Source: Leptolyngbyaceae cyanobacterium | GTDB lineage: Bacteria; Cyanobacteriota; Cyanobacteriia; Phormidesmidales; Phormidesmidaceae | Length of the DNA: 64,000 nucleotides | NCBI GenBank assembly: GCA_965263355.1 | Contig: CBDHHL010000032.1 | Span: forward strand, 544,001-608,000 | Direction of reading: 5' to 3' | Shown here: piece after piece, positions 557 to 16,008 of the stretch | Position numbering within the stretch: position 1 is the first letter of the stretch | Layout: each line of letters begins with the position of its first letter | Program-made: the position numbers and the translations under genes | The notes under the pieces: model-generated | Database searches by the model: none | What the model saw: the letters and a program-made list of their open reading frames with translations, nothing else | Told to the model about the DNA's origin: nothing

Positions 557-1334
557 AGGACTTTGACTGCAAGCCATTACAGTAATTTGTAATTTCTTTA
601 GGAGCCTGGTTATGGGTTTGCAAATACCCCTCTAGCCAATGGCAGCTGTCGGCCAACAGTTTATCCAATAGTTGAGCCTGATCACCACTCACATCCAAAC
701 GCCATAACAGTACTGTTTCCACAGGCGGACGGTCTTATCTTCACTGGCCGATGCTAATTTTTGACCATTCGGTGAAAATGCTAGGGAGGTCACAGGGCCT
801 TCATGGCCGTTTAGGGTAGTTAGCAAGCCCCGTTGTTTCCCTAGCTGCCAGATTTGAATCTGACTATTTTCTAGCCCTACAGCCAAGTGCTGTCCGTTAG
901 GGCTAAAGGCTACGCTCAGCACTTGAGTATCTTTGAAATCAAATCGATCAAGCTGGATTCCATCTGTGTGCCAGACCCTGGCGCTGCCATCGGCACTGGC
1001 CGATGCAATCATTTGGCCATCATTACTGACAGTAGTATCCCAGATAATCCCTTCATGGGCATCCAGGCGATTGCGCTCTCGGATCCAAAACACAGCTTGC
1101 TGTAAAGCCGTCACCACCAGGTCGTCAGAAAATGATTGATTGGGATTAACCGCCGCTTCATTTTTGAGTGCAATCCCTGCTTTCATCGCTTCTAAAAGGG
1201 CCTCAAATGGCTGGTGGGAGCCAAACAGAGCTTCAGAGGTTTCTGTCTGGGCCAAAATTGTTTGAGACTCAGCGTCCTGTCTTGCTTCCTGAGCAATTTC
1301 CTTTTGTTTATCAGCGCGTGTTCTTTTTTGGTTG
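549..1334 (-). pseudogene. WD40-repeat protein remnant, 5' end cut by IS66 and internal out-of-frame deletion
   Basis: About three WD40 repeats (GHEGPVTSLAFSPNGQKLASASEDKTVRLW). At ~718 another frame resumes with TVLLWRLD...LLADSCHWLEGYLQT, typical of cyanobacterial WD40 C-termini, and stops at 549. Confidence 0.8.
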
Positions 1335-2896
1335 GTAACTACTTAGGCTGTGGCAGAGGTGATTGAGGATTTCCAGAGAACAAATCGACAAGCGCGTCCC
1401 ACACATTGTGCCCTTGTTTTCGTAAAGTAGCCAAATAGCCACGAATACGACAGAACTGTTTAGCCCCATCCTCAGATCGGAAGCATCCCGAGATTTTCTG
1501 TTTCAGTTTCATCATGCGGAGGTCACGCTCGGCTTGATTGTTGTCAAAGGGAATCGAGAAATCGTACATAAAGCCGAGTACCGAGACCTTTTGATTACGT
1601 AAGCGCTTCAGTAGGTTAAGCGGGGGTGGACGTTTCGGTCGTCCCCGTTTTTTGGGTTTTGACGGAGGGGGCATTGGGTTTTGGGCAAACCCCTGCTCTA
1701 AAATGGCGTCATATCGGGACTCAAATGCGGCCAAGTCCTCAATCGATACCCTCTGTTTCCCCTGGGCTTTAAGGCTTTCGAGGTGAGTATGAATCGTCAC
1801 CAATAGCAGACTTAGTTGAAAGGCCCACCACTGACCATAACGTTCTAGCATGTACTGCAGTTCTCTCAAATGATGGGCATTACACAGAAAATGCTCACAG
1901 TCATACAGTGGGTAACTCTTCCAACCATCATGCACGGCCTTACCCTCAACCTCTGGTAACACTCCCATCGCCTCCATGGCCACTTGCCCCCGTTTGGGAT
2001 GGACAAAGTAGTAGGTCAACCCATTGGTTGAGGCTACATGCAACCACCACAGACGCTGATTGACCCGCAGACTGGTCTCATCAAAGTGAACAACCTCACT
2101 GGCCTCTATGGCTTGCTTAATCGTTGCCTCTATCGGCCCTAGATGCTCAAAGCACTGGTCACGGGTGGTGTAAAACGTTCCGTCTGAAACGCTCACGTTC
2201 ATTAAGTCCTTCAACACCTCACAGGCTCGATGCGACGGTAACAGTTGTCCCTCCATCAGGTACACCATCATGGCCTTGAGACGAGGACCATACTGCACAA
2301 CCGTGCTGGCCTCAGCAGGAAAGCTCCCTTGAGTGGACTGACCACATTTCGGGCCACGTTTTACCTCGACTTGATGCTCAGTGACCAATGACTCTATCGG
2401 TCGAATGTCAACTACTTGACGAGCTAACACCTCATCGACAGGGACACTCACTAACGACTCTCCACACCCTGAACACACCGTCACCTCATGGGGAGTCACA
2501 AAATCCGGATCGCTGCTCCATTCAAGGGTATGACCGCGATGACCAGGCTGACCACCCGATGACTTGTCGCTTTTACGCCGTAAGCTCTTAGTGCGTTTCC
2601 CAAAGCCATCACCTGACGGTGGTTTATGACTATTTCGACTGGTTTTGCCTAAGCGGCCTTTGAGCTCACTGACTTGGGTTTCTACCTTGGTGAGACGTTC
2701 CATCAACTGAGTCACCAAACTCACCACAGCCTCTTCTCCTTCCGCATACACTGCACGGATCTCTGCTTCGCTCAGCTGAATTGGTGGGTGTTGCTTGCTC
2801 ACTGGTCACCTACCTGGAACCTGACCATCAGTTAGGATATTTCATTTGCATAACAATCTTTGGAAAATCTCTATTTTTTTAAGCCTAAGTAGTTAC
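1335..2896 (-). mobile_element. IS66-family insertion sequence (single-ORF, ISBst12-like)
   Basis: Perfect 15-bp terminal inverted repeats GTAACTACTTAGGCT (1335-1349) and AGCCTAAGTAGTTAC (2882-2896) enclose the transposase ORF. Confidence 0.93.
1339..2802 (-). CDS. IS66-family transposase
   Basis: SRNSHKPPSGD, GGQPGHRG, CxxC, HFDET, WLHV, CNAHHLREL and FDNNQAERDLR motifs. Confidence 0.95.
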   Translation of the reverse strand: MSKQHPPIQLSEAEIRAVYAEGEEAVVSLVTQLMERLTKVETQVSELKGRLGKTSRNSHKPPSGDGFGKRTKSLRRKSDKSSGGQPGHRGHTLEWSSDPDFVTPHEVTVCSGCGESLVSVPVDEVLARQVVDIRPIESLVTEHQVEVKRGPKCGQSTQGSFPAEASTVVQYGPRLKAMMVYLMEGQLLPSHRACEVLKDLMNVSVSDGTFYTTRDQCFEHLGPIEATIKQAIEASEVVHFDETSLRVNQRLWWLHVASTNGLTYYFVHPKRGQVAMEAMGVLPEVEGKAVHDGWKSYPLYDCEHFLCNAHHLRELQYMLERYGQWWAFQLSLLLVTIHTHLESLKAQGKQRVSIEDLAAFESRYDAILEQGFAQNPMPPPSKPKKRGRPKRPPPLNLLKRLRNQKVSVLGFMYDFSIPFDNNQAERDLRMMKLKQKISGCFRSEDGAKQFCRIRGYLATLRKQGHNVWDALVDLFSGNPQSPLPQPK

Positions 2897-3034
2897 CATC
2901 TACCAAAGTATCGATGAGGTATTAGATGCTATTCATCAAAAAATACTTGCTATTCAAAGTTGACAAGCTATTGTCAACGAATGTCTTGCACGGAGGGGGC
3001 TTCGGGCGTTAGCGCTAGGTGTCGAGCCCCCTCC

Positions 3035-3166
3035 CTGACGGTGCCCCTTGCTTTACGCTTTAGTGCATGCCCGGAGGGCTTTAGGGGAATCCTTGGTGGA
3101 GTATCTTGAAACTATTGGTTTTCAAGGGTTTCAGCTATTCTCTCTGACCTTATGTATACACCGTAG
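3035..3166. mobile_element. Possible MITE / IS4-like end remnant
   Basis: Imperfect inverted ends CTGACGGTG...CACCGTAG. The right end read on the minus strand (GGCTACGGTGTATACATAAG) resembles, from recall, a common cyanobacterial IS4/MITE terminus. Confidence 0.4.
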
Positions 3167-3200
3167 CCTGGGAGGAACATTGGGGGGCACACACAGCCCA

Positions 3201-3890
3201 CTAAACCAAATCAGGATCTATCCCCAACGCCCTTAACTTCTCCGCCAGTCGGTCCGCCCGCGCCTTTTCTTGTTCTACTCTTTCCTCGGGTGTTCTCAAC
3301 CGTTGCCCAGTCTCGTTATACCAATACAACCATTCTCGCTCTCGGCCCAAGTAAGTTCCTCGTTCTCGGCCCAGACCCAACCCAATTTTAGGCAACCAAA
3401 CCGGATTTCCAGATAATGCTTCATATTCACCATCCACTAACTGATAAATCTCCAGGGGCTGACGCTTACGACGCGGGTGCCCATCTGGCAGATACACCGC
3501 ATAGTAGTCAACCTCCAACTCTGCATACAGTTTTTTCTTGCGTTCGTACTCACCACCATAGGTTTTCGAAACCACTTCTAAAGCCAGTGTTGGAGAAATA
3601 TTATCCTCTTCCCACATCACATAGCTCAGTCGCCCCCCTTCGCCAATGAATCGTTCTACACCCAAACTCAAAAAACCATCCGGCACCACCGCTGGCGCAC
3701 TGGGGTCAAAATAAATCCCCATATCTACCCCAAAAAACCAATCCTCACGCTCTGGCCAGATCATCGCCAAAATCGCTTCGAGTAAATTGGGAATCAAATT
3801 CTGTAACTCATTATCCACAGGCGTATCATCCGAGTCCGGTAACTCAGCAGAGGAGGGTAAGCATTGCTTTGGGTCAAACTTTAAAACCAT
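3201..3890 (-). CDS. Uma2 (DUF820) family putative endonuclease
   Basis: LPDSDDTPVDNELQ, VPDGFLSLG, LALEVVS and coiled C-terminal LRALGIDPD. Confidence 0.9.
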   Translation of the reverse strand: MVLKFDPKQCLPSSAELPDSDDTPVDNELQNLIPNLLEAILAMIWPEREDWFFGVDMGIYFDPSAPAVVPDGFLSLGVERFIGEGGRLSYVMWEEDNISPTLALEVVSKTYGGEYERKKKLYAELEVDYYAVYLPDGHPRRKRQPLEIYQLVDGEYEALSGNPVWLPKIGLGLGRERGTYLGREREWLYWYNETGQRLRTPEERVEQEKARADRLAEKLRALGIDPDLV

Positions 3891-3990
3891 GGCTACCGCA
3901 AGCTAGACCAGTACAACTATTCTAGCAGTTGGCTGATGTAGATGATAAATCATGGCCAACTTGAAACCTGTAGATTCTCTGTTTAATCGT

Positions 3991-4437
3991 TTAGCCTCGA
4001 ATAACAACCACATCCCGTTTGCCAGACGTCATCGCTAACTCTGTTGTGGTGCGTTCTGCAATTGGCCCAATATTAGAACGCTGATCAAAAATCACTAGCC
4101 AACCCAAGCTTAACCCTAAACCTGCCAGATAACGATCCAACTGCTCTAATCCCTGACTAATCGGATCCGGTCGCCCCTCTCGCCACACCTTCAACTCCAT
4201 CGCCAGTGTCGTTGTTCCGTATCGTAAACATAGGTCCATCCGGTCTGACCCAATGGCATATTCTCTCTCTAGTGTGCCGCCACCTTCGACTCCGCTCAGG
4301 TCGAGACCATTCACCACTCGATGTAAAAACGCCATCAATACTAGATGGGGCGCAATCTCATGGTATGGAGCACTTTTTAACAAAGGTTGTCCATGTTGTC
4401 GCCAAAAGCTAAGAAACGCCTGTAATAGCGTCGCAAT
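3991..4437 (-). pseudogene. C-terminal remnant of AAA-like ATPase with PD-(D/E)xK-like tail
   Basis: AFLSFWRQHGQPLLKSAPYHEIAPHLVLMAFLHRVVNG...EREYAIGSDRMDL...ELKVW...EQLDRYL. Preceded directly by an in-frame stop, with no Walker A region. Confidence 0.75.
4282..4308. repeat. Small palindromic dispersed repeat inserted in frame
   Basis: ACC-TTCGACTCCGCTCAGGTCGAG-ACC. Removing 24 bp restores VNGGGTLEREY. Confidence 0.7.
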
Positions 4438-4470
4438 CTATATACCTTTAAAACCGACTCAGGATCTAAA

Positions 4471-5316
4471 CTAGGACCCCCAAACTGAATATCGGCAAAC
4501 ACCATTGGAGTGTAACCCTGTCTGGTTTAAGGCAAGCTTCTGATCAAATGCATTGTTTTTAGTCTTAAAACGTTGATACAGTTTTGTTTCGTTCAGCGTT
4601 AGAGTCAGGCGGTCGTCTTCCCAAGAAAGCTGACCAGCACCACCCCGCCCCAGATTATTGCAGTAATGGTAAATCTTACGGCAAAAGAGCTTCGTTGGGC
4701 CACATTCATAGAGCGATAGCTTACCGTAGGCATCAAAGCTCATATAGCTCATCTGATAGCTTTTATTCCAGGTATTTACTTGAAGCGCATCTACATGGTC
4801 AATAAAATAGCCATTAAACGGCATGAGTCCGACAGTTAGGGTTATTAGCAGAGAGAATGTAACAATGCTATTAACCTTGACCTGGTGAGGAAACTGAGAA
4901 ATTGCAACTATAATCCACAAAATATCAAGGGCAACAATCAAAAAAAATAGTCGTATAGGACCATGAAATCCACCACCGTGTAGAAAGGATAGGGGCAGTG
5001 ACAAAGCCATGCCAACTACGGCCAAAAGAGCAAAACCCCAGATTTTAAGCCATCGCCATCGGACCTGCTTCAAGGACGTAACCGGAAAGATAAAACTGGC
5101 ACAGCAAATGAATAACAGCAAGATCCAAAATCCAAAAAAGAAAAGGCCATGGAGAAATACAGCAACTGGATAAGGTCCTGGTAAAATGCCATTGATAAAA
5201 AGCCAATGCCATGGCAAGTATGCAAAGAACAATAATAGCCCTGGCTGACCAACTCTTTGAAGCAAGGTTTGTCTGTTCCAGTGGTGATAGAAATATCGTA
5301 ATAGCTGCATTATCAA
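4471..5316 (-). CDS. Hypothetical multi-pass membrane protein
   Basis: 281 aa ORF with about 5 hydrophobic segments followed by a Cys-containing soluble domain. Confidence 0.6.
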   Translation of the reverse strand: MIMQLLRYFYHHWNRQTLLQRVGQPGLLLFFAYLPWHWLFINGILPGPYPVAVFLHGLFFFGFWILLLFICCASFIFPVTSLKQVRWRWLKIWGFALLAVVGMALSLPLSFLHGGGFHGPIRLFFLIVALDILWIIVAISQFPHQVKVNSIVTFSLLITLTVGLMPFNGYFIDHVDALQVNTWNKSYQMSYMSFDAYGKLSLYECGPTKLFCRKIYHYCNNLGRGGAGQLSWEDDRLTLTLNETKLYQRFKTKNNAFDQKLALNQTGLHSNGVCRYSVWGS

Positions 5317-5580
5317 GGGGGACGAGGATGATGGATATATATCCTTGAATTCTTGATGGGGCTATCTAATTTCGAAAAAAATCGACAAGTTTACCCAAAC
5401 CATATAATCCTGGCAGCCTCCTAAATCCTCGAACTCTGCTGACTTTGAGTTCCGAAGCCCCCAGAATTTTGGGTGGGGACCTTTGCACGAGTGTCATATT
5501 TAAAAAGTTCTTGTTTCTTGTGTAAATTACTTTGCCTGCCTACTGATCCTGTAACATAGCCAGCATTCTGAAGGCCCTCT

Positions 5581-6666
5581 TTAGTCCTCTCTTTTCTTTG
5601 CCAAAATCTCTTCAATCCATACTTGATGCTTTTCATTCTCAAAGCGTTTCAAATAGGCTAGGGCAATTTGTCCCACCGCTGGGTTCTCTTCAATCGCGTC
5701 TAACAGTCTGTGAGTTGTACGTTGTAATATCGCTCGCTCAATCTGTTGATGGGTTGCCACCGGTACCAGGATGGCGGCCAAAACGACCCCGATCCCGGCT
5801 GGAATCATTGGCATCAACCAGCCCAGTAAAAATCCTCCATAGACACCACTGGTTAACCCGGTCAGCAACGCCATGATCAATAACGCCACCTCAAGGGTTG
5901 CTCTCGCCAATAGATGCCCGCCACACCGCCCGCCGTGGTCCAGACCAAAATCCAGACAATCTCCTGCCATTCCTGCCAGCTTTTGAATAAAGGCCGACCG
6001 TCAAGGGCTGAGCGCAACAACATACTAACGGTATTGGCATGGACCGTTACCCCAGCCATGGAAACGGTTTCGCGGGTGGTATAGGGGGTAATCAACACAT
6101 TGTTGACGGTGGAGGCGACGGAGCCGATTAAGACGATGCGATCGCGAATCACCTCCTCAGGCACCTCTCCATTCAGCACCTGGGTGAGAGAAAAAGTGGG
6201 AAACTGCGATCGCACCCTCACATAGTTCAGCATCACCTGATAACCATTGGCATCGGCCCGAATATAGCTGCCCTCATAGGGGCTTAATGGCTTCAGCATG
6301 GCCTGCCCCAAACGCACCGCATTGGCTGGACGGTTAACTGCCTCAAAAGCAATCCCTTCCTGTTCTAAATAGGCCAGCACCAGCTTGGATGAAAAGCTAA
6401 ACAATAGGGTGCCCGGTTCCGGCTCGATGGACAACAACGCCCGTCGGATAGACCCATCATTCTATATCTGCTTGCTCTAGCCGTGCCATGGTTTTGACAC
6501 TCAAGCTAGACTTACCCATCTGGCGGGCCGTCAGAATATAGCAAAACTCCCCCCGACAGACCGCATCATAGAGCGCACTATCCGCCTGCCGTTGCACATA
6601 GCTAAGAGCCTGGGTGGGCAAACTCCCCCCCACTTGATACTGAAATCCAGGCTGTTGTTCCGTCAT
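5581..6666 (-). pseudogene. AAA-like(AAA_35)-CHASE2 protein, internally deleted and frameshifted
   Basis: 6666-6457 encodes YQVGGSLP...YVQRQAD...ARQMGKSSL (P-loop). It switches frame into DGSIRRALL...RDRIVLIG...GVTVHANTVS (CHASE2). A second shift near 5885 leads to the last transmembrane (TM) helices. Confidence 0.8.
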
Positions 6667-6681
6667 ATCTATTGTTCTAAA

Positions 6682-9600
6682 TTAGACGCTTCGATAGCGA
6701 TAGGTCATATACCCCACCGCACCACCGGTAAGCCCCCAAGCCATTAGTGCCGGTACCCAAGGTATCCAAATAGCTGACCACACCATAGAACCATAACAAG
6801 CGATGGTTAAAACGCCGATCGAGCCAGCGCTGGCGAGCAACAATGGCCGCAGTCGCACACATCGCCAAAAGATCAAGCCGCCAACACCAGACCACAGTAA
6901 AATCCAGCCCGATTCTTCCACAAATGACCACCAGCGGATGAGAGGGCGTTCCTCTAAGGCCGCATTGATCAGTTGGCTAATCATTTGTCCATGGACATAA
7001 ACTCCAGGAATAGAATCGCCATAAGGGGTATTGAAATCATCGGAGTTGCGATCGCTAAAATCTGTATAGCCAATTAGGACAATGCGATCGCGAATCAGCG
7101 CAGGATCAACCTTGTCCTGAATGACAGCTTCTAAAGAAACCTGCTGAGCAAAATCCTTTAGCCGAGAACCCCGTCCTTGGGACTCTGGATCGTCATAGGT
7201 GCGAAAGTTGATCAGAGTTTGATAGTCTATCCAACTACTCCAGCCTAGATTTTCGGTCATCGCACTATAGGCAGTGCCGTTACTATCAATATTGGGTACT
7301 ACAACAGTATTAAAGGAAATAACACCGACTGTTTCTGCATCGCTAGTATTTTCATAGGTAATCCCTTCGGTCTCAAGATACGTCTTAGCCAACAACAAAC
7401 TAAAGGACTCCTCAGTGAGACAAGAACTATCGCCACTAACCTGCTGAGTTAAATAGTGACGGCGCACAATGTTGCCACCATCCTGGAGGAAATTAGCAAA
7501 ACCAACCCGAGTCTCGGGCATTTCGTTGCCGATATCGCCAACCTGTTCGTTAGCCTGTTTGTCAGCTGTCTGACAAATACCAAACAAATTATCCATCCAA
7601 GCCAAATCGTTGGCCAAAGCCCCCTTAGCCGGAAAATCACGGAAAAAGTCTAACCCAATCAAACGAGCATCATGGCGATTGAGAACTCTAATAGCCTCTG
7701 AAAGTGCATTCTCAGGAATCGTACCAATACCAGGGGTATAACGACCATCAATCATCTGTTGCCGTAGCCACTCGCCACTGGGGAAATCTACCTTAACAAT
7801 TAGCAGCCGCTCATCCTGTTCAGTTTCATTGGGCCGCCACCGCAGGAACTGGTCATAAGCGCGAGTTTCTAGGGGCTGAAAACCACCCAATAGTCTGATG
7901 ACAGAAACTGCTAAGGCACTGACTACCGTCGCTAATGCCACGGATCGAGCTTTGATTTTCTTAAATGGCAAGGCCTGACTGGCCTGAATATAAGCTTTTT
8001 GCAGGGCAGTAACCGATGGTGTTTTGTCCTGGGCCTGCTCTAACCAACGGACTGATTCTGCCAGGTCATTCCCCCGTAGTAAAAAACTCTCATCCCGCTG
8101 GGCAGCGTCCCATTCAGCGGCTTTGACTAACAGGCGTGTGTGCGATCGCACATGATGCGGATCGCTTTCCAAGGTGCGAAACAACTCGCCAAAGTTCACC
8201 AGAAAGTCACCGTCATGTCGTCGAAAATCACTCCAGGGTAATGACTCGATCCCTTCCGGCAGTGTAGATTTCACCACAGCCCGATAGATCACCGGTAAGA
8301 TACGTTTTTGCTGGGACCGGGCATAGGCTAGCTGATCTAGACAGGCCTGACACCGGACAGCACTGGGCGACAAAATAAACAGAACAGTTTCAGCATTATC
8401 AATCAGCAGGTGAGTATCGTCTAGTCGGTCAGTCTCACCTGCCGAACCGTCCGGTGATAACCAGGCACTTTTGCCTTGAACTAACAACGTTTCATTAAGC
8501 CGATGAGAAAAATCATAATCATCAATATGGTGAATAAAAAAGACCCCCAGGGTTTGATCGGGAGACTGCCTTTGACTGGCATCCAAAAACGCTAGCTGTA
8601 GGGGCAATGCGCCGTTTGGCTGACGATTCTTAGCGGTTTGAGCCCAGGCTAAATAGGTATCCTGTATCTGACGCTGTAGGAGCAAACTCGGGTTTTGTTG
8701 TTGTCGTTCCCACTTAAGTGCTCGCACCAAAAGACGTTTGTGTTGATTATGGTATGAAGCCTCTCTCTGGATCGCCTGCAACAGCTCTGCCATATCTTTT
8801 TCTAAATCGATAGAGGCTTGATTGTCAGTGAGATTAATAAATTGAATCTTACGAATGGTTTCTGGTATCAGTGCTAAATTCACATCCTCCACCAGCATAG
8901 GAATCACCCGTTTGTTTAGGTCTAGCGCTTGATCAATTTCCTGTTGACAATAAACTGAGGCAAGGGATGCCTGGGAAATCAGATAGACAACATTGTCAGC
9001 CTCTTCCAGACCCCGCTGGATAGCAACTTCAAAGTCTTCACCCATACGGATATCCACCGTACTGGTCCAAACTGTCACACCAGCTTGTAGTAAGTGATAG
9101 CGAACAATTTCCTTTGTGGTTAAATCTTCTTCGGCACAGGAGATAAAGACCTGGGTCATGCCACCGTCGGCAGCCTTGATACTTTCTGTAATAAACTCTG
9201 CTTGCACCAGGTTCGGTTTACAGGGCAGTTGCTCCTTAGTAAATTCCGTCTGCAGCCAAGTTTGCGCCCGCAGTCGTTCCTCTCCCATCAGTAAGTAAGT
9301 GGCTTGACGTTGGTGACGCTCCCAGGCGAGGGCACTAATCAAGAGTTCAGTGTGCTGATGGACATAGTCTTCATGCCGATGACACAGCTCTATCAGTCCA
9401 TTAATGGCAGTGTCTAAATCATCGATGCCTGGACGGGCGTTGATCCAATTGATCCGACCAATGTCAGGGGGCATATTGGGGAAACTCGAATGTTTCCCCT
9501 TGGCTTTATAGATTTTCCAATGATCCGGACTGTCTGAAGGATTGCGAGCTTTCCAGGTGGAATAGCCAATTTCTTCCACCTGCAAAATGGGGATAATTCG

Positions 9601-11166
9601 CTTGTTGTATTTCAGTGCCAGGGAAATTTCCTTCGCACAGTAGGGCGAGTTAATGGAGTGAGGGCTGATGATAAATATAAAATTGTGGCTTTTTTCGATG
9701 CCGTCATTGATTTGTGCCTGGAAGTCTACGCCTAGGGGAATATCATTTTGATCAAACCAGACCTGAAACCCGTGGCGATTGAGCTGTTGACACAGATCAG
9801 TGGCAAAGGCTTTACTATCGATGCGACCATAGGAAATAAAAGCATCATAGAACTGATTAATACCTTGACTGGCCTGGATATAGGCGGTGTGCAAATCGGT
9901 GGGAGAACTGCCCGATGGACTGGGTTCCGATAGCCAGGCTTGGGCCATGGCAAAGGCATCGGACCTGAGTAAAAACTTGCGATCGCGATCCTGACGTTCC
10001 CAGGCCAATGCCTTTACCAACAGACGTTTATGTTGGTCCACATAGTCTGCCGAGGTCCTGAGAGTGCGAATAAGCTTATCTATAGCCTGATCAAAGTGAC
10101 TATCAGACGCTAGGGACGAAAAATCAATAAACTGCAACGCGCGCAAGTCGGTGGGCAATGTTGCCATATCCATGGACTGCACCAGCAGTGGAATGATCCG
10201 CTTATGGTAGCGACGAGCATAGGCGCATTCCTGTTGACAATAGCTTGACGCTAACGCATTAGGAGACAGCAATAAAACAATATTGTCGGTTTTTTCAATA
10301 CCCCGATTGATAGCGACCTGAAAGTCTTCAGCGGTGGGAATGTCTACGGTATTTACCCAAACCGTTACCCCCTCACGCATCATGCGCTTACGGACCTTCT
10401 CCTGAATGGCCATATCCTCTTTACTGTAGGATATAAAAACTTGAGTCATCTGGTCATTGGCAGCCTTCAGACTTTCCGTAATAAATTCGCACTGTAAGTC
10501 AGTGGGGATACAGGGCGGTTGTTTGTCTTTAAAGCGAATGTTTAACCATTGTGCTGCCTTCGCCAATTTCTCAGTATCTGTTAACAAATAGTTGGCCTGA
10601 CGCTGCTGACGCTGCCAGCTGAGAGATTGTAGCAACAGCTGTGTATGTTGGTGCACATAGGGGTGATATTGGGTCAGCATGGTTTGTAATCCAGCCATGC
10701 CTGTCTCAAAGTTATCTATCCCCTCACGCAAGTACACCCAGTCAATTTTTCGAATCTCAGGGTGCATATTGGGAAAACTGCTGTGCATTCCCTTTTCTTG
10801 GAGGGCATGCCAGTCGCCTGTATCGGCATCCGGAGTAAGCTGTTGCCAGGTTTCGTAGCTGATTTCCTCAATATGCAACAGTGGAATAATGCGCTTACTA
10901 TGGGTCAGCGCTAGCTCGATTTCCCGAGTACAGTAAGGGGAATTAACAGAATAGGGAGAAATAATAAAGAGAAAATTATCTGCATTCTCAATGGCATCCT
11001 CAATCTGATTTTGATACCCCATCCCCTGAGGACTATGCTCAAAATCAACCCAGACCTCTAACCCTGCCTCAACGAGGTGATCATAGATCTGCTTGGTAAA
11101 CAAACGGCTGTCTGTCCTGCCATAAGAAATAAAGACATCCTGCAGAAAAGAAGGAGGGGGTGTCAT
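6682..11166 (-). CDS. Multi-TIR (5x) + CHASE2 membrane protein
   Basis: Four FIS(Y/C)...S-x-YC-x-x-E TIR domains plus a degenerate fifth. These are followed by a TM segment, CHASE2 (AYDQFLRWRP, IGLDFFRD, RIVLIG, PGVYVHGQMISQL) and 3 C-terminal TM helices. Confidence 0.9.
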   Translation of the reverse strand: MTPPPSFLQDVFISYGRTDSRLFTKQIYDHLVEAGLEVWVDFEHSPQGMGYQNQIEDAIENADNFLFIISPYSVNSPYCTREIELALTHSKRIIPLLHIEEISYETWQQLTPDADTGDWHALQEKGMHSSFPNMHPEIRKIDWVYLREGIDNFETGMAGLQTMLTQYHPYVHQHTQLLLQSLSWQRQQRQANYLLTDTEKLAKAAQWLNIRFKDKQPPCIPTDLQCEFITESLKAANDQMTQVFISYSKEDMAIQEKVRKRMMREGVTVWVNTVDIPTAEDFQVAINRGIEKTDNIVLLLSPNALASSYCQQECAYARRYHKRIIPLLVQSMDMATLPTDLRALQFIDFSSLASDSHFDQAIDKLIRTLRTSADYVDQHKRLLVKALAWERQDRDRKFLLRSDAFAMAQAWLSEPSPSGSSPTDLHTAYIQASQGINQFYDAFISYGRIDSKAFATDLCQQLNRHGFQVWFDQNDIPLGVDFQAQINDGIEKSHNFIFIISPHSINSPYCAKEISLALKYNKRIIPILQVEEIGYSTWKARNPSDSPDHWKIYKAKGKHSSFPNMPPDIGRINWINARPGIDDLDTAINGLIELCHRHEDYVHQHTELLISALAWERHQRQATYLLMGEERLRAQTWLQTEFTKEQLPCKPNLVQAEFITESIKAADGGMTQVFISCAEEDLTTKEIVRYHLLQAGVTVWTSTVDIRMGEDFEVAIQRGLEEADNVVYLISQASLASVYCQQEIDQALDLNKRVIPMLVEDVNLALIPETIRKIQFINLTDNQASIDLEKDMAELLQAIQREASYHNQHKRLLVRALKWERQQQNPSLLLQRQIQDTYLAWAQTAKNRQPNGALPLQLAFLDASQRQSPDQTLGVFFIHHIDDYDFSHRLNETLLVQGKSAWLSPDGSAGETDRLDDTHLLIDNAETVLFILSPSAVRCQACLDQLAYARSQQKRILPVIYRAVVKSTLPEGIESLPWSDFRRHDGDFLVNFGELFRTLESDPHHVRSHTRLLVKAAEWDAAQRDESFLLRGNDLAESVRWLEQAQDKTPSVTALQKAYIQASQALPFKKIKARSVALATVVSALAVSVIRLLGGFQPLETRAYDQFLRWRPNETEQDERLLIVKVDFPSGEWLRQQMIDGRYTPGIGTIPENALSEAIRVLNRHDARLIGLDFFRDFPAKGALANDLAWMDNLFGICQTADKQANEQVGDIGNEMPETRVGFANFLQDGGNIVRRHYLTQQVSGDSSCLTEESFSLLLAKTYLETEGITYENTSDAETVGVISFNTVVVPNIDSNGTAYSAMTENLGWSSWIDYQTLINFRTYDDPESQGRGSRLKDFAQQVSLEAVIQDKVDPALIRDRIVLIGYTDFSDRNSDDFNTPYGDSIPGVYVHGQMISQLINAALEERPLIRWWSFVEESGWILLWSGVGGLIFWRCVRLRPLLLASAGSIGVLTIACYGSMVWSAIWIPWVPALMAWGLTGGAVGYMTYRYRSV

Positions 11167-11209
11167 AAATATTAGATGCCTACTAAGGGCCTAGACTGGA
11201 TAATGAGGC

Positions 11210-12403
11210 TCAGAAACCATAGCTCCAACGGGCACGATATCCCCGTGCATCGATATGGGTAAAGACGGATGCGCTTGCCAGTCCGCCGCGATCTCGCCAC
11301 CAAGGTTCTAACTTCCGGTTTACGTCCGGTGGAGAAACACCCTGAACGACAAAATCAACCGCATCTCCAGAAAGATGACGAGAACGACTAGCGCCACCTG
11401 CTCGACGGTTTGAAGCGGGATCACGATACCAGGAGTTAACCGTAATGGGACGTCCTCCCAAATAATCCCGTACTTCTTCCATAACCTCGGCAATTTTGAT
11501 AATACCGTCGACTACAGTGTCATCCACAGGAATACGATTGCCATTTTTTGTTGCTTCGGCCCAGCTAAAGTGACCATCCGTCAGGATCGGATCGCCTAGA
11601 TAAACCGTCCCTAGTTTGGGGACGGTAATGGATCGACCGCGATCCCGTTCAGCGATCTTCGTTTCTGGTTCAACCGGCGGGTCCTGGGGCTTGTTGTCAG
11701 CGTCCGTACCCTCTAACTGAATATGCTGGGCAAAAACATACCAATCAACGCGATCATTTTGCCCCATCAGCATCCCGTCGGGGATCCGGACTTTTACATG
11801 GTTTGACTTGTCCGGTTCATCACTGAGTAACTGCAACCGCGTACCTGCACTGACTAATATTTTGTCAGTGTCCGCCAGTTGAAAGCTCTGTTTTGGACTC
11901 ACCTTAAATAAGGTATCTGCCAATACAAGCATCTCGGTGGACCCTTTGGGATTACCGAGATCAATCAACTGCTGCGACTGCATATAGCGCATAATAGCTG
12001 CCGCACCGATGCGAGGCGTTTTTGGCTTGGCTATGTTAGTGCCCCCCCAAACCCAAGTAGACGCTTGCCCAGCACCGTCTCTAAACCCGTGCCATAGGTC
12101 AACGCCCCACAACAGCGCCCCTAGGGTGCGGGTCTTCGCCTGATGGAATTTTTTGGCAATCAGAGCATCGATTACCTGACGTTCAAACTGAGCGGGCTCA
12201 CGAAAGTTCCACTCGCTATAGTGCAAAATTCCCACAAACCACCAGGGCACACTAGTGGCTTTTTCCACAGCTTCGTAGTGCGATCGCAATTGCACCATGC
12301 GACCCACAATTCCCCTCACGGTAGGCTCCGCATCTGGCAGCAGCTCACAACCCTCAAATGCTGACTTATACTCTGGCTCAAGTTTTTTTAGAGTCAAATC
12401 CAT
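11210..12403 (-). CDS. Peptidoglycan hydrolase: lysozyme-like N-terminus + peptidase M15A (D-Ala-D-Ala metallopeptidase) C-terminus
   Basis: C-terminal SWYR..N..GGASRSRHLSGDAVD...FTHIDARG has intact H/D/H Zn ligands. N-terminal YEAVEKATSVPWWFVGILHYSE is lysozyme-family-like. Confidence 0.85.
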   Translation of the reverse strand: MDLTLKKLEPEYKSAFEGCELLPDAEPTVRGIVGRMVQLRSHYEAVEKATSVPWWFVGILHYSEWNFREPAQFERQVIDALIAKKFHQAKTRTLGALLWGVDLWHGFRDGAGQASTWVWGGTNIAKPKTPRIGAAAIMRYMQSQQLIDLGNPKGSTEMLVLADTLFKVSPKQSFQLADTDKILVSAGTRLQLLSDEPDKSNHVKVRIPDGMLMGQNDRVDWYVFAQHIQLEGTDADNKPQDPPVEPETKIAERDRGRSITVPKLGTVYLGDPILTDGHFSWAEATKNGNRIPVDDTVVDGIIKIAEVMEEVRDYLGGRPITVNSWYRDPASNRRAGGASRSRHLSGDAVDFVVQGVSPPDVNRKLEPWWRDRGGLASASVFTHIDARGYRARWSYGF

Positions 12404-12807
12404 GGAGCTAGTAGATGAAACAACAGAGATAAATAGCAGCCAAGAGAACTTAAATAGAATCCACAGGAGGTGCTACAAGCAATAAGCAATTGAATACCAG
12501 CAATCTCACTGACAACAACCAACGCTAAGACTCATTTAATTACCTACATCAGCCCATACCTTTAGCAATAGTTACAAAGCCTAGCCAATGCAATGAACCG
12601 ATAACATTTATAGAAAATTTATGCTAGCTCAAATAATAATGAAGAATTTATACTTTAGCGATGGTGCCCAGATAAAACCAACAAGATAAATTGTTCGTAA
12701 GTTAATTTTTATAAATCTAAGAGTTAGTTTACAAAGCTAAAGCGTGTACCTTTGAGTTGCGTTTTAGCTAAAAAGCTTGTCCTTGACTCGCATCTAATCA
12801 AAATAAA

Positions 12808-14337
12808 ATGGCCAAGAAAAGTTCTTACAACGATTATCTTAAGCAAACCCTAGGAGGGTTAATTGATAGGCTTGATATTTCAGAGTTACGTAAGGAATTT
12901 CTCAAAAATCGCTGGCTAGATCAGGTGATGTGGCTAGAAGGAAAGGCCACTAAAGAGCGGGATAGACACTACAAGCTGCGTTTGGTAACTATCATTGGCG
13001 GTGTGATTGTTCCAGTCATGGTAGGCCTAAACCTTGAAGGTCCGCTCGAAAAGCAGCTTAAGTATGCCGCCCTTGGGCTAAGTACAATAGTGGCTATTTC
13101 CGCTGCTGTCGAAGAATTCTTTTTGCCGAGTGAGAAGTACCGCAATTATCGTAGTACGGCAGAAAGCATGAAAATTGAGGGTTGGCAGTTTATGCAATTG
13201 GCAGGCCCTTATCGTAAATTCAAGGTTCATTCAGACGCCTATAAGATATTTGCCCAACGGGTTGAAGCCTATATTCAAAAAGATGTAGAAGGGTTCATTG
13301 CCCGTTTAGAAGAGAAACAGGAGGAAAGTAAGGAGGACGCTGATGAGGCGGCCAATAACGTTGAACAGACCCTTATGAGTCTCAATCAACAGTTAGAGGA
13401 AGAACGGGCGCAGCGTTTGGAGTTAGAGCGTGCACGTTTGGCTGAACAACAAGCTAGCAGTCCATCACCGACCCTGGATGATGGAGGTGGTTATTCTGGT
13501 TCCCTGATGGATATTCAGATGCCTCCATCTACTGATGAGGGAGATTTTGAGGAAAGCTTACCCCAGGAAAGCCGCCTGACTGAACCGTTGGCTGGTGTGC
13601 AGTCCCTGATGTCATCACAACCAACGGCTAGCCGAACCCGTGAAGTTTCCAGTAGAACAATTAAGACATCTAGTAGCCTCCCTCCCTTAGGTCAATATGC
13701 CCTGGAATGGGAGGAAACGGTTGACTTTAACGCGCTAAAAACAATTTTGACTGAGCAGAATAGTACTGGCACCCAGACCAATGGAGGGGCTAGTGGCGCT
13801 GAACCTCAGTTAACTACACCTGATGAAGTTTCTCAAATCTTGGAATGTCCGTTAGAAGACTGCAAAGTCTATCTGCCAGGCGTTTTACTGGCGATGCAAA
13901 AGTACGACATCTATGACAAGTCCGTATTGATTGGTCTATTAGCCACCATTCGCATTGAGACTGGCGGTTTCAAACCGGTCCATGAATGGGGAGGAGAAAG
14001 CTACTGGAAACGCTACGAAGATCGAGCAGATTTGGGTAATGTTAACCCTGGTGATGGCGTGAAATACCATGGCCGTGGCTACATTCAGCTTACAGGACGG
14101 GCTAATTACCATGACTATGGTAAGAAGCTGGGTGTGGATCTTGAAAATAATCCAGATTTAGCCATGGATCCTGAAATATCAGCTCAAGTTCTGGCCTGCT
14201 ACTTCAAAGAGCGTGGTGTGGCAACGGCGGCCCGTGAAAACGATTGGCGACGCGTACGCAAGTTAGTTAATGGTGGTTACCACGGCTGGGATGTGTTTTC
14301 AAGATATGTTGAGCGGGCTCAGGCTCGATTGGCATAA
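12808..14337 (+). CDS. DUF4231 (SLATT-like, 2 TM) domain fused to GH19 lysozyme/chitinase-like domain
   Basis: N-terminal RWLDQVMWLE...two TM...YRSTAESMKIEGWQF. Then a coiled/low-complexity linker. C-terminal ATIRIETGGF...YEDRADLGN...GDGVKYHGRGYIQLTGRANY...VNGG. Confidence 0.88.
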   Translation: MAKKSSYNDYLKQTLGGLIDRLDISELRKEFLKNRWLDQVMWLEGKATKERDRHYKLRLVTIIGGVIVPVMVGLNLEGPLEKQLKYAALGLSTIVAISAAVEEFFLPSEKYRNYRSTAESMKIEGWQFMQLAGPYRKFKVHSDAYKIFAQRVEAYIQKDVEGFIARLEEKQEESKEDADEAANNVEQTLMSLNQQLEEERAQRLELERARLAEQQASSPSPTLDDGGGYSGSLMDIQMPPSTDEGDFEESLPQESRLTEPLAGVQSLMSSQPTASRTREVSSRTIKTSSSLPPLGQYALEWEETVDFNALKTILTEQNSTGTQTNGGASGAEPQLTTPDEVSQILECPLEDCKVYLPGVLLAMQKYDIYDKSVLIGLLATIRIETGGFKPVHEWGGESYWKRYEDRADLGNVNPGDGVKYHGRGYIQLTGRANYHDYGKKLGVDLENNPDLAMDPEISAQVLACYFKERGVATAARENDWRRVRKLVNGGYHGWDVFSRYVERAQARLA

Positions 14338-14662
14338 ACTTGACATAAATCCAAGAAGATGTTATTAGCCAAGATGTTACGAGGCCCGAGTTTGATTGCA
14401 TCAATAACTAATGCTCTAAAGGCAACGATAGATTATTAGTCAAATGCGAGCCAGGCATAGCAACTGCATAGTGCTTGTGGTGCTTGTAACGGTATTGGAT
14501 TCTATGATTTTGTGCGTATACTTTGTTCACACCCCTAACTAAAATTAGATCGCTTTATCTATAAATTTGGACGGATTCTACAGGATAAGGGTATTTTGGG
14601 GTGTAAGTAAGTTAAACAATCCACCCAGACCTGTCGGTCACCTTTGTTAAGAGAGATACGAA

Positions 14663-15454
14663 ATGCCCAAAACTTCAGCTGACGAACTTGTTGAACATAG
14701 GTTTTCTAATGGGCAGCTGGCCAAAATACTCAAGGTGGCTGACAGTACTGGTTATAAAAAAGCATTATCAATTGTTGGCTTACAGGGGCCGACACCTACA
14801 TTGTTGGTGATTGGTGGAGCTAGCAATATGACGCCTGAAAGTCAGGCAAAGCTAATTCAATTCTTTAATAATGCATTAGCAATCTTGTCAGAAAGATTAG
14901 GGATTACCGTATTAGACGGTGGCACTGATGCTGGGGTGATCCATATGATGGGGCAAGCGCGTTATCACGTCAGCGGTCAGTTTAATCTTGTTGGAGTTGC
15001 CCCGCTAAATAGGGTTATTTTTCCAGTTGATGAGATGCCTTTACCAGCCTCGGATGATGAAAACTATCCTCCAGTAGAATTGGAACCCCATCACACCCAC
15101 TTTTTTCTAGTTCCTGGTGAAAACTGGGGTAGTGAGTCGCGATGGCTAGCAAGATTTTCGTCAGTTTTGGCCGGACATTTTCCCTCCATGACTTTACTAA
15201 TTAATGGAGGTCAGGTATCTCTCAAGGACTTGAAGCTCAATTTAGAGTTTGGTAGGCAAGTTACGATCATCGCTGGCAGTGGTCGTTTAGCAGATGCGGT
15301 GGCCGATACTATTAGCGGTGTAGCCCCCTCTGAAGATAAAACGATCCAGCATTTAGTAAACACCTATTATCCCAGCCAGTTGTCGGTCTTTAATCTCCTA
15401 TCAAGTTCATTAGATGACTTAAAGGCTCAATTGGACATCTATTTTGATTGCTAA
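14663..15454 (+). CDS. SLOG-superfamily protein (TRPM-like prokaryotic LSDAT)
   Basis: LLVIGGA, LDGGTDAGV, LVGVAP, LEPHHTHFFLVPG..WGSES, LLINGG and AGSGRLAD motifs. Confidence 0.85.
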   Translation: MPKTSADELVEHRFSNGQLAKILKVADSTGYKKALSIVGLQGPTPTLLVIGGASNMTPESQAKLIQFFNNALAILSERLGITVLDGGTDAGVIHMMGQARYHVSGQFNLVGVAPLNRVIFPVDEMPLPASDDENYPPVELEPHHTHFFLVPGENWGSESRWLARFSSVLAGHFPSMTLLINGGQVSLKDLKLNLEFGRQVTIIAGSGRLADAVADTISGVAPSEDKTIQHLVNTYYPSQLSVFNLLSSSLDDLKAQLDIYFDC

Positions 15455-15639
15455 TGGTTAGCAGATGGCTAGAGATTGCAGCCATTGGCAAATCTAGCTG
15501 GTTTAGCAATAGCATTCTCTGCCAGGGGAGCAGCAGTAATTGTTAAGAATTAGAATCAGCAATTGGCAAGGTATGCTAAAGTTCTATGGCAATGAATTGC
15601 TAAGCTTAGTGACAATCAGTTTTCGGTACGATACGCTCA

Positions 15640-15667
15640 CAGTTCAACTCGACCAGTTCAACTCGAC
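15640..15667 (+). repeat. 14-bp tandem duplication in rbp leader
   Basis: CAGTTCAACTCGAC x2. Confidence 0.85.
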
Positions 15668-15735
15668 TTCGATTTGATTACTAGAGGAGGGATCTCCCGT
15701 ATAACTCGTCGCATATTTAATCTAGGAGATTCTCT

Positions 15736-16008
15736 ATGTCCATTTATGTTGGAAATCTGTCCTATGATGCTACTCAGGAAGACATTAATGCTGTCTTTAC
15801 TGAGTATGGAGCAGTCCAGCGTGTCCATCTACCGACGGATCGTGAAACCGGTCGTCCCCGTGGTTTTGCCTTTGTAGAGATGTCTTCGGAAGATGAAGAG
15901 ACCGCTGCCATTGAGGCACTGGATGGTGCAGAGTGGATGGGTAGGGATCTACGGGTTAACAAGGCGCGCCCTCGTGAGCAGCGTGGCGGCGGTGGCGGTC
16001 GTTTTTAA
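15736..16008 (+). CDS. rbp: RRM RNA-binding protein (Rbp) with Gly-rich tail
   Basis: MSIYVGNL (RNP2) and RGFAFVEM (RNP1). Confidence 0.95.
   Translation: MSIYVGNLSYDATQEDINAVFTEYGAVQRVHLPTDRETGRPRGFAFVEMSSEDEETAAIEALDGAEWMGRDLRVNKARPREQRGGGGGRF

Follow-up and report, generated by a model that had tools for sequence, protein, structure and literature searches.

The 64,000-nucleotide stretch analysed here, referred to below as the window, comes from a Leptolyngbyaceae cyanobacterium (assembly GCA_965263355.1, contig CBDHHL010000032.1, positions 544,001 to 608,000). An open reading frame of its reverse strand (6682-11166), free of internal stops, encodes a protein of 1494 residues in which five tandem TIR domains precede a CHASE2 sensor. 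This protein is one of a family of predicted membrane receptors whose genes are linked, in several genomes, to those of LSDAT and SLATT proteins. The reading favoured here, to which a probability of about one half can be attached, is that the receptor responds to a periplasmic cue by making an ADP-ribose-type messenger from nicotinamide adenine dinucleotide (NAD+), and that this messenger is read by LSDAT/SLATT, leading to leakage or lysis.

A receptor with five TIR domains

Pfam recognizes five TIR_2 stretches in the protein (E 7e-109) followed by CHASE2 (E 3.6e-48), in agreement with a preliminary description of the locus made from the nucleotide sequence alone. The motifs by which two alternating TIR types had been distinguished are in place (FISY at 11133 and 9840, VFIS at 10440 and 9150), as are the four catalytic glutamates and the glutamine of the last unit (Table 1). 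The TIR fold of the modelled units is confirmed by structure matches. A model of A3-B4-C5-CHASE2 built with 56 sequences is confident locally (predicted local distance difference test, pLDDT, 87.7; predicted template modelling score, pTM, 0.60), and its TIR folds match SARM1 (Z 18.7, root-mean-square deviation 1.8 Å, 127 aligned), Hydra TRR-2 (Z 19.0, 2.4 Å, 126 aligned) and also MyD88. Folding A1-B2-A3 from a single sequence gave no usable model (pLDDT 41.9). For CHASE2, no significant sequence match was obtained in the PDB and no fold match was present among those listed, the lists being dominated by TIR hits.

A self-BLAST of the receptor returned the full-length match alone, and the repeats were therefore compared through an alignment of the units. 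The identity is 48.5% between A1 and A3 and 42.9% between B2 and B4, as opposed to 30-36% across the A and B types and 22-33% with unit 5. These values uphold the duplication of an A-B pair proposed at the outset, and the helical linker that had been noticed between the TIRs occurs five times. The conserved insert of A1 is common to the A-type units.

In CHASE2 receptors, one membrane helix precedes this domain and three follow it. The same layout was found in the window protein by hydropathy and in the model, and on this basis both termini and all the TIRs are predicted to be cytoplasmic. No C-terminal kinase or cyclase output was detected by Pfam, the protein stopping directly past the last helix, which leaves the TIRs as the sole predicted cytoplasmic output, as initially claimed.

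Orthologues of 63-79% identity account for 18 of 28 genome loci, with Leptolyngbya, Adonisia and Leptothoe among their titles. The order A-B-A-B-C-CHASE2 is intact in 15 of them, two are cut by contig ends and one is split: in Leptothoe sp. PORK10 BA2 (L016:8001-13887), the break lies inside unit C and about 1.3 kb separates the pieces. Another contig, which may be from the source sample, covers window positions 2870-16000 with one letter different, and this spanning contig together with the 18 orthologous loci rules out an assembly artefact. In comparison with 10 orthologues, dN lies between 0.11 and 0.24 in all 12 regions, synonymous sites being near saturation; the receptor is under purifying selection. 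A scan of the locus for promoters and terminators gave results at chance level.

Linkage to LSDAT and SLATT genes

Upstream of the receptor gene, the window encodes, besides an M15 peptidase, a SLATT protein fused to a GH19 hydrolase, divergent from the receptor, and an LSDAT protein. This proximity is not restricted to the close orthologues. As a forward test, 82 further TIR loci were inspected, and LSDAT or SLATT was found in 13 of them, with varied gene order and with either sensor type. A survey of 301 genomes of the phylum, made for A-type TIRs with one unit, detected LSDAT in 22, A-type TIR in 10 and both in 9. With the centre genome left out, the corresponding Fisher test gives P = 1e-9, or 0.015 if only 40 genomes are taken as eligible; because the genomes are related, these values overstate the association. 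In 5 of the 8 non-centre genomes holding both, an A-type gene lies at most 10 kb from LSDAT, for an expectation of 0.07. The linkage of a TIR to SLOG/SLATT genes known from Thoeris is thus present in the window, in its orthologues and in these five genomes, the window genes being divergent rather than part of one operon.

Starting from the LSDAT side, SLATT was found within 10 kb in 16 of 22 loci and a TIR-connector gene in 8, one weak fragment at a contig end being left out of the count. The linked LSDATs are 35-54% identical to that of the window and stand in differing gene orders; among themselves they are mostly 35-60% identical, some close pairs (up to 93%) not being independent. Near 15 LSDAT loci, the TIR family was absent from the 35 of 94 open reading frames that were scanned (E 1e-12).

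Some other neighbours of LSDAT deserve mention. NAD-housekeeping genes adjoin it in 3 of 15 loci (L135:7816-9390, L141:11719-13311 and L147:7278-8984), namely NAD(P)H-hydrate dehydratase twice and NAD synthase once. A TPR-S protein, a possible alternative input, stands directly upstream of a TIR-less LSDAT-SLATT pair (L145:7171-9528). LSDAT also adjoins one-TIR and two-TIR connector-WD40 genes, which are other subtypes (L136:6327-9530, L155:5231-9151).

The preliminary description had overlooked this linkage to LSDAT, SLATT and wall hydrolases, as well as the A-B-C core unit and the nSTAND1-type nature of the linker presented below.

A family of TIR arrays with exchangeable sensors

A search with the TIR array returned 1756 proteins, the best 120 of which were examined; a second search added 135, and the family set counts 254 proteins. 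The core cassette is A-B-C, while A-B-A-B-C, A-B-C-A-B-C and longer arrays also occur. C is the last unit in all 243 proteins whose tail has at least 60 residues. This tail is CHASE2 in 77 cases, WD40 in 100 and of another type in 66, where several scanned examples revealed more WD40, FGE-sulfatase, dCache, WG or pentapeptide repeats. With a simple hydropathy cut-off, a hydrophobic helix was found after C in 88 of the 100 WD40 members, 53 of the 77 CHASE2 members and 55 of the 66 others. Exchangeable tails combined with this helix argue for a family of predicted membrane receptors with swappable outer sensors. As deduced from sequence, its layout is an (A-B)n-C array with a swappable C-terminal sensor, usually behind a predicted membrane helix, so that the Toll-like arrangement first seen in the window protein holds family-wide.

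A quick tree built from 117 units of 27 proteins separates classes A, B and C (SH-aLRT 99, 99 and 92, respectively). Two three-TIR proteins of this tree unite an A1-like unit and a B4-like one, suggesting that arrays may also shrink via recombination. Paralogues are found within single genomes, with 3-9 matches each in five of them. Arrays of about 7-8 or more TIRs were observed outside the close clade (P0053, P0073, P0083 and P0023), three of these being named from Candidatus Parabeggiatoa, another filamentous group.

The linker is a conserved element in its own right. A hidden Markov model derived from 500 linkers matches 7 of 20 loci chosen for nSTAND1 (E 4.5e-8 to 1e-3), the best reversed decoy being at 0.13. 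These matches lie just past the conserved AHxALI-like motif at the end of the NTPase module, and three further nSTAND1 proteins give sub-threshold matches at the same place. The Walker A pattern is absent from all 254 family proteins, and Pfam finds no NTPase family in the receptor. Taken together, connector homology and the lack of Walker A argue that each unit consists of a TIR and a STAND connector without NTPase, and the family looks like STAND receptors stripped of this module. Like nSTAND1 or Avs-like STAND proteins (effector-NTPase-connector-sensor), the receptor has the homologous helical connector before its sensor, and both draw on the same pool of sensors (WD40, FGE-sulfatase/FGS, pentapeptide); the array family differs by its missing NTPase and by a connector repeated behind every TIR. 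STAND membership was rejected on the absence of the P-loop NTPase domain, although the post-NTPase connector is present before the sensor.

Catalytic state of the TIR units

Of 171 A units, 162 retain the catalytic glutamate, as do 187 of 207 B units and 93 of 134 C units; in about 95% of the A units, the flanking pocket motifs are kept with it. In A3, this residue aligns with the BtTir glutamate. The first-strand motif of unit C5 reads FFIHHID, against FISYSR for the family. Among the 31 C units at least 60% identical to C5, glutamine is present in 21 and glutamate in 8, and the first-strand motif is degraded in all. The dN of C5 (0.109, against the same 10 orthologues) is nonetheless one of the lowest among the 12 regions. 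Low divergence together with glutamine and a degraded motif is consistent with a conserved, non-catalytic role limited to this clade, and C5 is predicted to be inactive yet conserved. In published work, ThsB loses signalling upon an E85Q substitution (PMC10022894). The early proposal of a TIR5 pseudo-enzyme is therefore acceptable for this clade. It fails as a family rule, glutamate being kept in 85 of the 103 C units more distant from C5, and a dead last TIR was rejected as a general property of the family.

Neighbouring genes

The coordinates of the receptor units and of the neighbouring genes are collected in Table 1.

Table 1. Features of the receptor locus (window positions; residues are those of the receptor)
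Feature	Positions	Strand	Basis or remark
Five-TIR / CHASE2 membrane receptor, 1494 residues	6682..11166	-	Open reading frame call and Pfam
Unit A1, residues 8-234: A-type TIR with conserved insert of ~28 residues, E82 (CTRE), and helical connector	10465..11145	-	
Unit B2, residues 238-434: B-type TIR, E313 (CQQE), and connector	9865..10455	-	
Unit A3, residues 437-664: A-type TIR, E513 (CAKE), and connector	9175..9858	-	
Unit B4, residues 668-865: B-type TIR, E743 (CQQE), and connector	8572..9165	-	
Unit C5, residues 869-1070: C-type TIR, Q945 (CLDQ), degraded first-strand motif, last connector	7957..8562	-	Conserved, predicted inactive
Predicted membrane helix 1, residues 1076-1094	7885..7941	-	Hydropathy and model
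CHASE2 sensor domain, residues 1084-1431, predicted periplasmic	6874..7917	-	Pfam
Three predicted C-terminal membrane helices, residues ~1415-1493	6688..6924	-	Hydropathy and model
M15 peptidase, endolysin-like; HxxxxxxD and FxHxD motifs intact; hydrophobic segment absent	11210..12403	-	43 bp upstream of receptor
SLATT (DUF4231 / SLATT_1, two predicted membrane helices)-GH19 endolysin-like fusion	12808..14337	+	Divergent from receptor
LSDAT_prok SLOG protein, TRPM2 MHR1/2 homologue	14663..15454	+	

Within the 18 orthologous loci, M15 is present in 17, SLATT-GH19 in 14 and LSDAT in 13, the missing cases being due to short contigs; taken alone, this conservation could be explained by plain synteny. 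The top PDB matches of LSDAT are TRPM2 chains, the best being zebrafish TRPM2 (E 1e-7), and the MHR1/2 region of these channels is itself assigned to the LSDAT family of SLOG domains (PMC13143021). Human TRPM2 binds ADP-ribose through Y295, R358 and R302 (PMC6759353). Human numbers were transferred to LSDAT by way of the zebrafish alignment, with an offset of +24, and W155 and R208, at the positions of Y295 and R358, are invariant in 45 of 45 homologues.

GH19 and M15 match phage endolysin families with their motifs kept, and no signal segment was seen in the two window hydrolases. Given the two membrane helices of SLATT, the fused GH19 would be cytoplasmic. SLATT is fused to a phage lysozyme in L097:12258-13736, and to a longer GH19-bearing tail with further endolysin-like domains in L094:1723-4005 and L154:5549-7744, suggesting, at the sequence level, repeated holin-endolysin-like fusion events. 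The N-terminal portion of M15 (about 130 residues) has no Pfam match and presumably resembles a lysozyme-like family; in L097, a homologue of it is found in the vicinity of LSDAT, SLATT and a TIR gene.

Downstream of the orthologues stands a TPR protein with a signal-peptide-like start, usually together with a TPS-CHAT gene, and DUF928 follows four distant three-TIR CHASE2 members (4 of 4 tested). The products of these genes are candidates for CHASE2 partners. The window carries remnants at this place (5581-6681, reverse strand, directly downstream of the receptor), made of a 74-codon AAA_35 start (E 2e-4) and the rear half of a second CHASE2 gene. The rearrangement is real, since in another sample of the same study a contig reads through 4756-7397 with no differences. 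Further along (689-2900, reverse strand), a WD40 open reading frame (689-1255) matches residues 669-881 of an A-B-C-WD40 paralogue with 68-72% identity. This paralogue adjoins the orthologous loci downstream; the window remnant has no TIR part and is abutted by a transposase gene (1339-2802) which we take to be IS66-like.

Proposed mechanism and alternatives

From the domain architecture, the modular family, the homology of the connector, purifying selection, gene linkage and the LSDAT pocket residues, a mechanism can be inferred that goes beyond this anatomy at each of five steps. (1) A ligand on CHASE2 would cluster or re-pose the receptor. (2) The nSTAND1-type connectors would relay the signal to the array without using an ATP switch. 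(3) Glutamate-bearing A and B TIRs would assemble and cleave NAD+, C5 serving as a catalytically dead spacer or template beside the membrane. (4) ADP-ribose or a cyclic form would bind the TRPM2-like LSDAT pocket and/or SLATT itself. (5) SLATT oligomers would open the membrane, and hydrolases, where present, would get to the wall in a manner comparable to holin-endolysin lysis. The likely outcome would be the controlled death or lysis of a single cell in the filament. A bolder formulation, in which NTPase-less multi-TIR receptors with exchangeable periplasmic sensors would gate a split TRPM-like channel (LSDAT and SLATT) via an ADP-ribose messenger and free the cell's own endolysins, thereby constituting a bacterial, outside-in counterpart of the animal NAD-to-TRPM2 pathway for receptor-controlled single-cell lysis in filamentous cyanobacteria, is doubtful and is put forward tentatively.

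Besides the relatedness of the genomes behind the P values, several observations weigh against the proposed mechanism. Where 5 kb or more of flank was available, LSDAT or SLATT was present at just 10 of 55 further TIR loci. On the LSDAT side, a TIR gene of the family is missing within 10 kb at 14 of 22 loci, and an A-type match is missing from 13 of the 22 genomes with LSDAT. The majority of TIR paralogues are orphans, and no TIR gene is a neighbour of most LSDAT-SLATT pairs. Only 2 of the 22 LSDAT loci yielded GH19, so that lysis enzymes are optional. In the LSDAT pocket, the position of human R302 is not kept, L162 being found there and hydrophobic residues among the homologues. The locus keeps a stable place next to carB throughout the Leptothoe/Adonisia clade, which a mobile defence island would not be expected to do, and the secreted-protein genes found downstream of the orthologues are lost in the window.

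The 45 loci devoid of both genes also speak for a self-contained NADase, whose array would drain NAD+ on sensor firing as do SPARTA or TIR-STING, LSDAT and SLATT being independent neighbours in an envelope or conflict gene cluster. The length of some arrays (6-8 or more TIRs), which would raise NAD+ turnover, and the one A-type genome in ten without LSDAT match point in the same direction. However, the linkage to LSDAT is far above chance, with differing gene orders and both sensor types, and orphan paralogues could feed one shared LSDAT/SLATT pair, and LSDAT is present in 9 of the 10 A-type genomes. This explanation is considered unlikely.

The same low likelihood is given to a non-lethal role in envelope or developmental signalling, where the messenger would adjust a conduit for ions or solutes, in effect a genuine TRPM-like channel, along with local wall remodelling in filaments, or answer two-partner-secretion products, the cell not being killed. 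The stable chromosomal position in the clade, the genes that follow the CHASE2 members (DUF928, or a TPR protein and usually TPS-CHAT) and the absence of any PADLOC match in the four neighbours tested would suit such a role. It is less compatible with hydrolases of phage endolysin families that have no signal segment, and the characterised TIR-SLATT pairs are toxic defence systems (bioRxiv 10.64898/2025.12.03.692087). Finally, it is very improbable that the TIRs serve only as interaction modules which, like those of animal Toll-like receptors, recruit other TIR proteins and have no catalytic function. In favour of this view, C5 is conserved like the other units though its catalytic residues are gone, and Toll-like receptor TIRs, in which the aligned glutamate is also kept, are among the best sequence matches. 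Against it, the A units preserve the glutamate with its pocket motifs, and the linked LSDAT retains a nucleotide-type pocket.

Relation to known systems

Thoeris types I, III and VII place, as the window does, a TIR with catalytic glutamate beside SLOG/SLATT genes, and in type VII the cyclic ADP-ribose made by the TIR activates SLATT effectors (bioRxiv 10.64898/2025.12.03.692087). In contrast to these systems, the TIRs of the window form an array within a receptor predicted to lie in the membrane and to carry its sensor on the outside, its SLOG is a stand-alone LSDAT and not a SIR2-SLOG, and its SLATT is fused to a wall hydrolase. Thoeris membership by the curated Ths/Thc models was rejected, ThcB4 scoring 135.9 for a cut-off of 220, and the PADLOC matches are confined to the TIR stretch of the receptor. 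By analogy, the receptor may generate a signal as Thoeris does, though in a Toll-like layout, being a member of neither Thoeris nor STAND by the tests run.

With Toll-like receptors, the window family shares an outside sensor, a membrane helix and inside TIRs. The order is however reversed, with N-terminal TIRs numbering 3-8 or more, the sensor is CHASE2 or WD40 instead of leucine-rich repeats, and the TIRs are predicted enzymes. Another parallel in layout is offered by the cyanobacterial caspase-CHASE2 and EACC2-caspase proteins, where an N-terminal effector is combined with a variable C-terminal sensor, possibly CHASE2 (PMC8195603; PMC2853523); the effector of the window protein is a TIR array and not a protease. 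Animal TRPM2, in which the MHR1/2 SLOG domain gates the channel by ADP-ribose, is the closest solved relative of LSDAT, which keeps two of the three binding residues, the aromatic clamp and the phosphate-binding arginine, but not R302. Unlike TRPM2, LSDAT stands alone, the TRP pore is absent and any pore would be the separate SLATT.

Several of these associations are already on record: TIR with SLATT (PMC9503650, PMC7159879), LSDAT beside TPR proteins (bioRxiv 10.1101/2023.05.26.542521) and CHASE2 with DUF928 and WD40 genes (PMC5587647). The name of the Pfam family indicates that the SLOG-SLATT pairing is known as well. The literature searched, whose coverage was partial, yielded no account of membrane receptors with several TIRs or of a connection between these and LSDAT, and an earlier mention is possible.

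In the literature consulted, the TIR systems of Thoeris are triggered by phage infection inside the cell. The array family would add to them surface receptors of Toll-like layout whose sensors can be exchanged. It would also provide a testable source of ligand for the prokaryotic homologue of the TRPM2 ADP-ribose domain, and natural arrays of three, five or more TIRs, with live and dead C units, permit a direct test of active sites formed in cis. For filamentous cyanobacteria, this receptor is a candidate route to controlled cell death.

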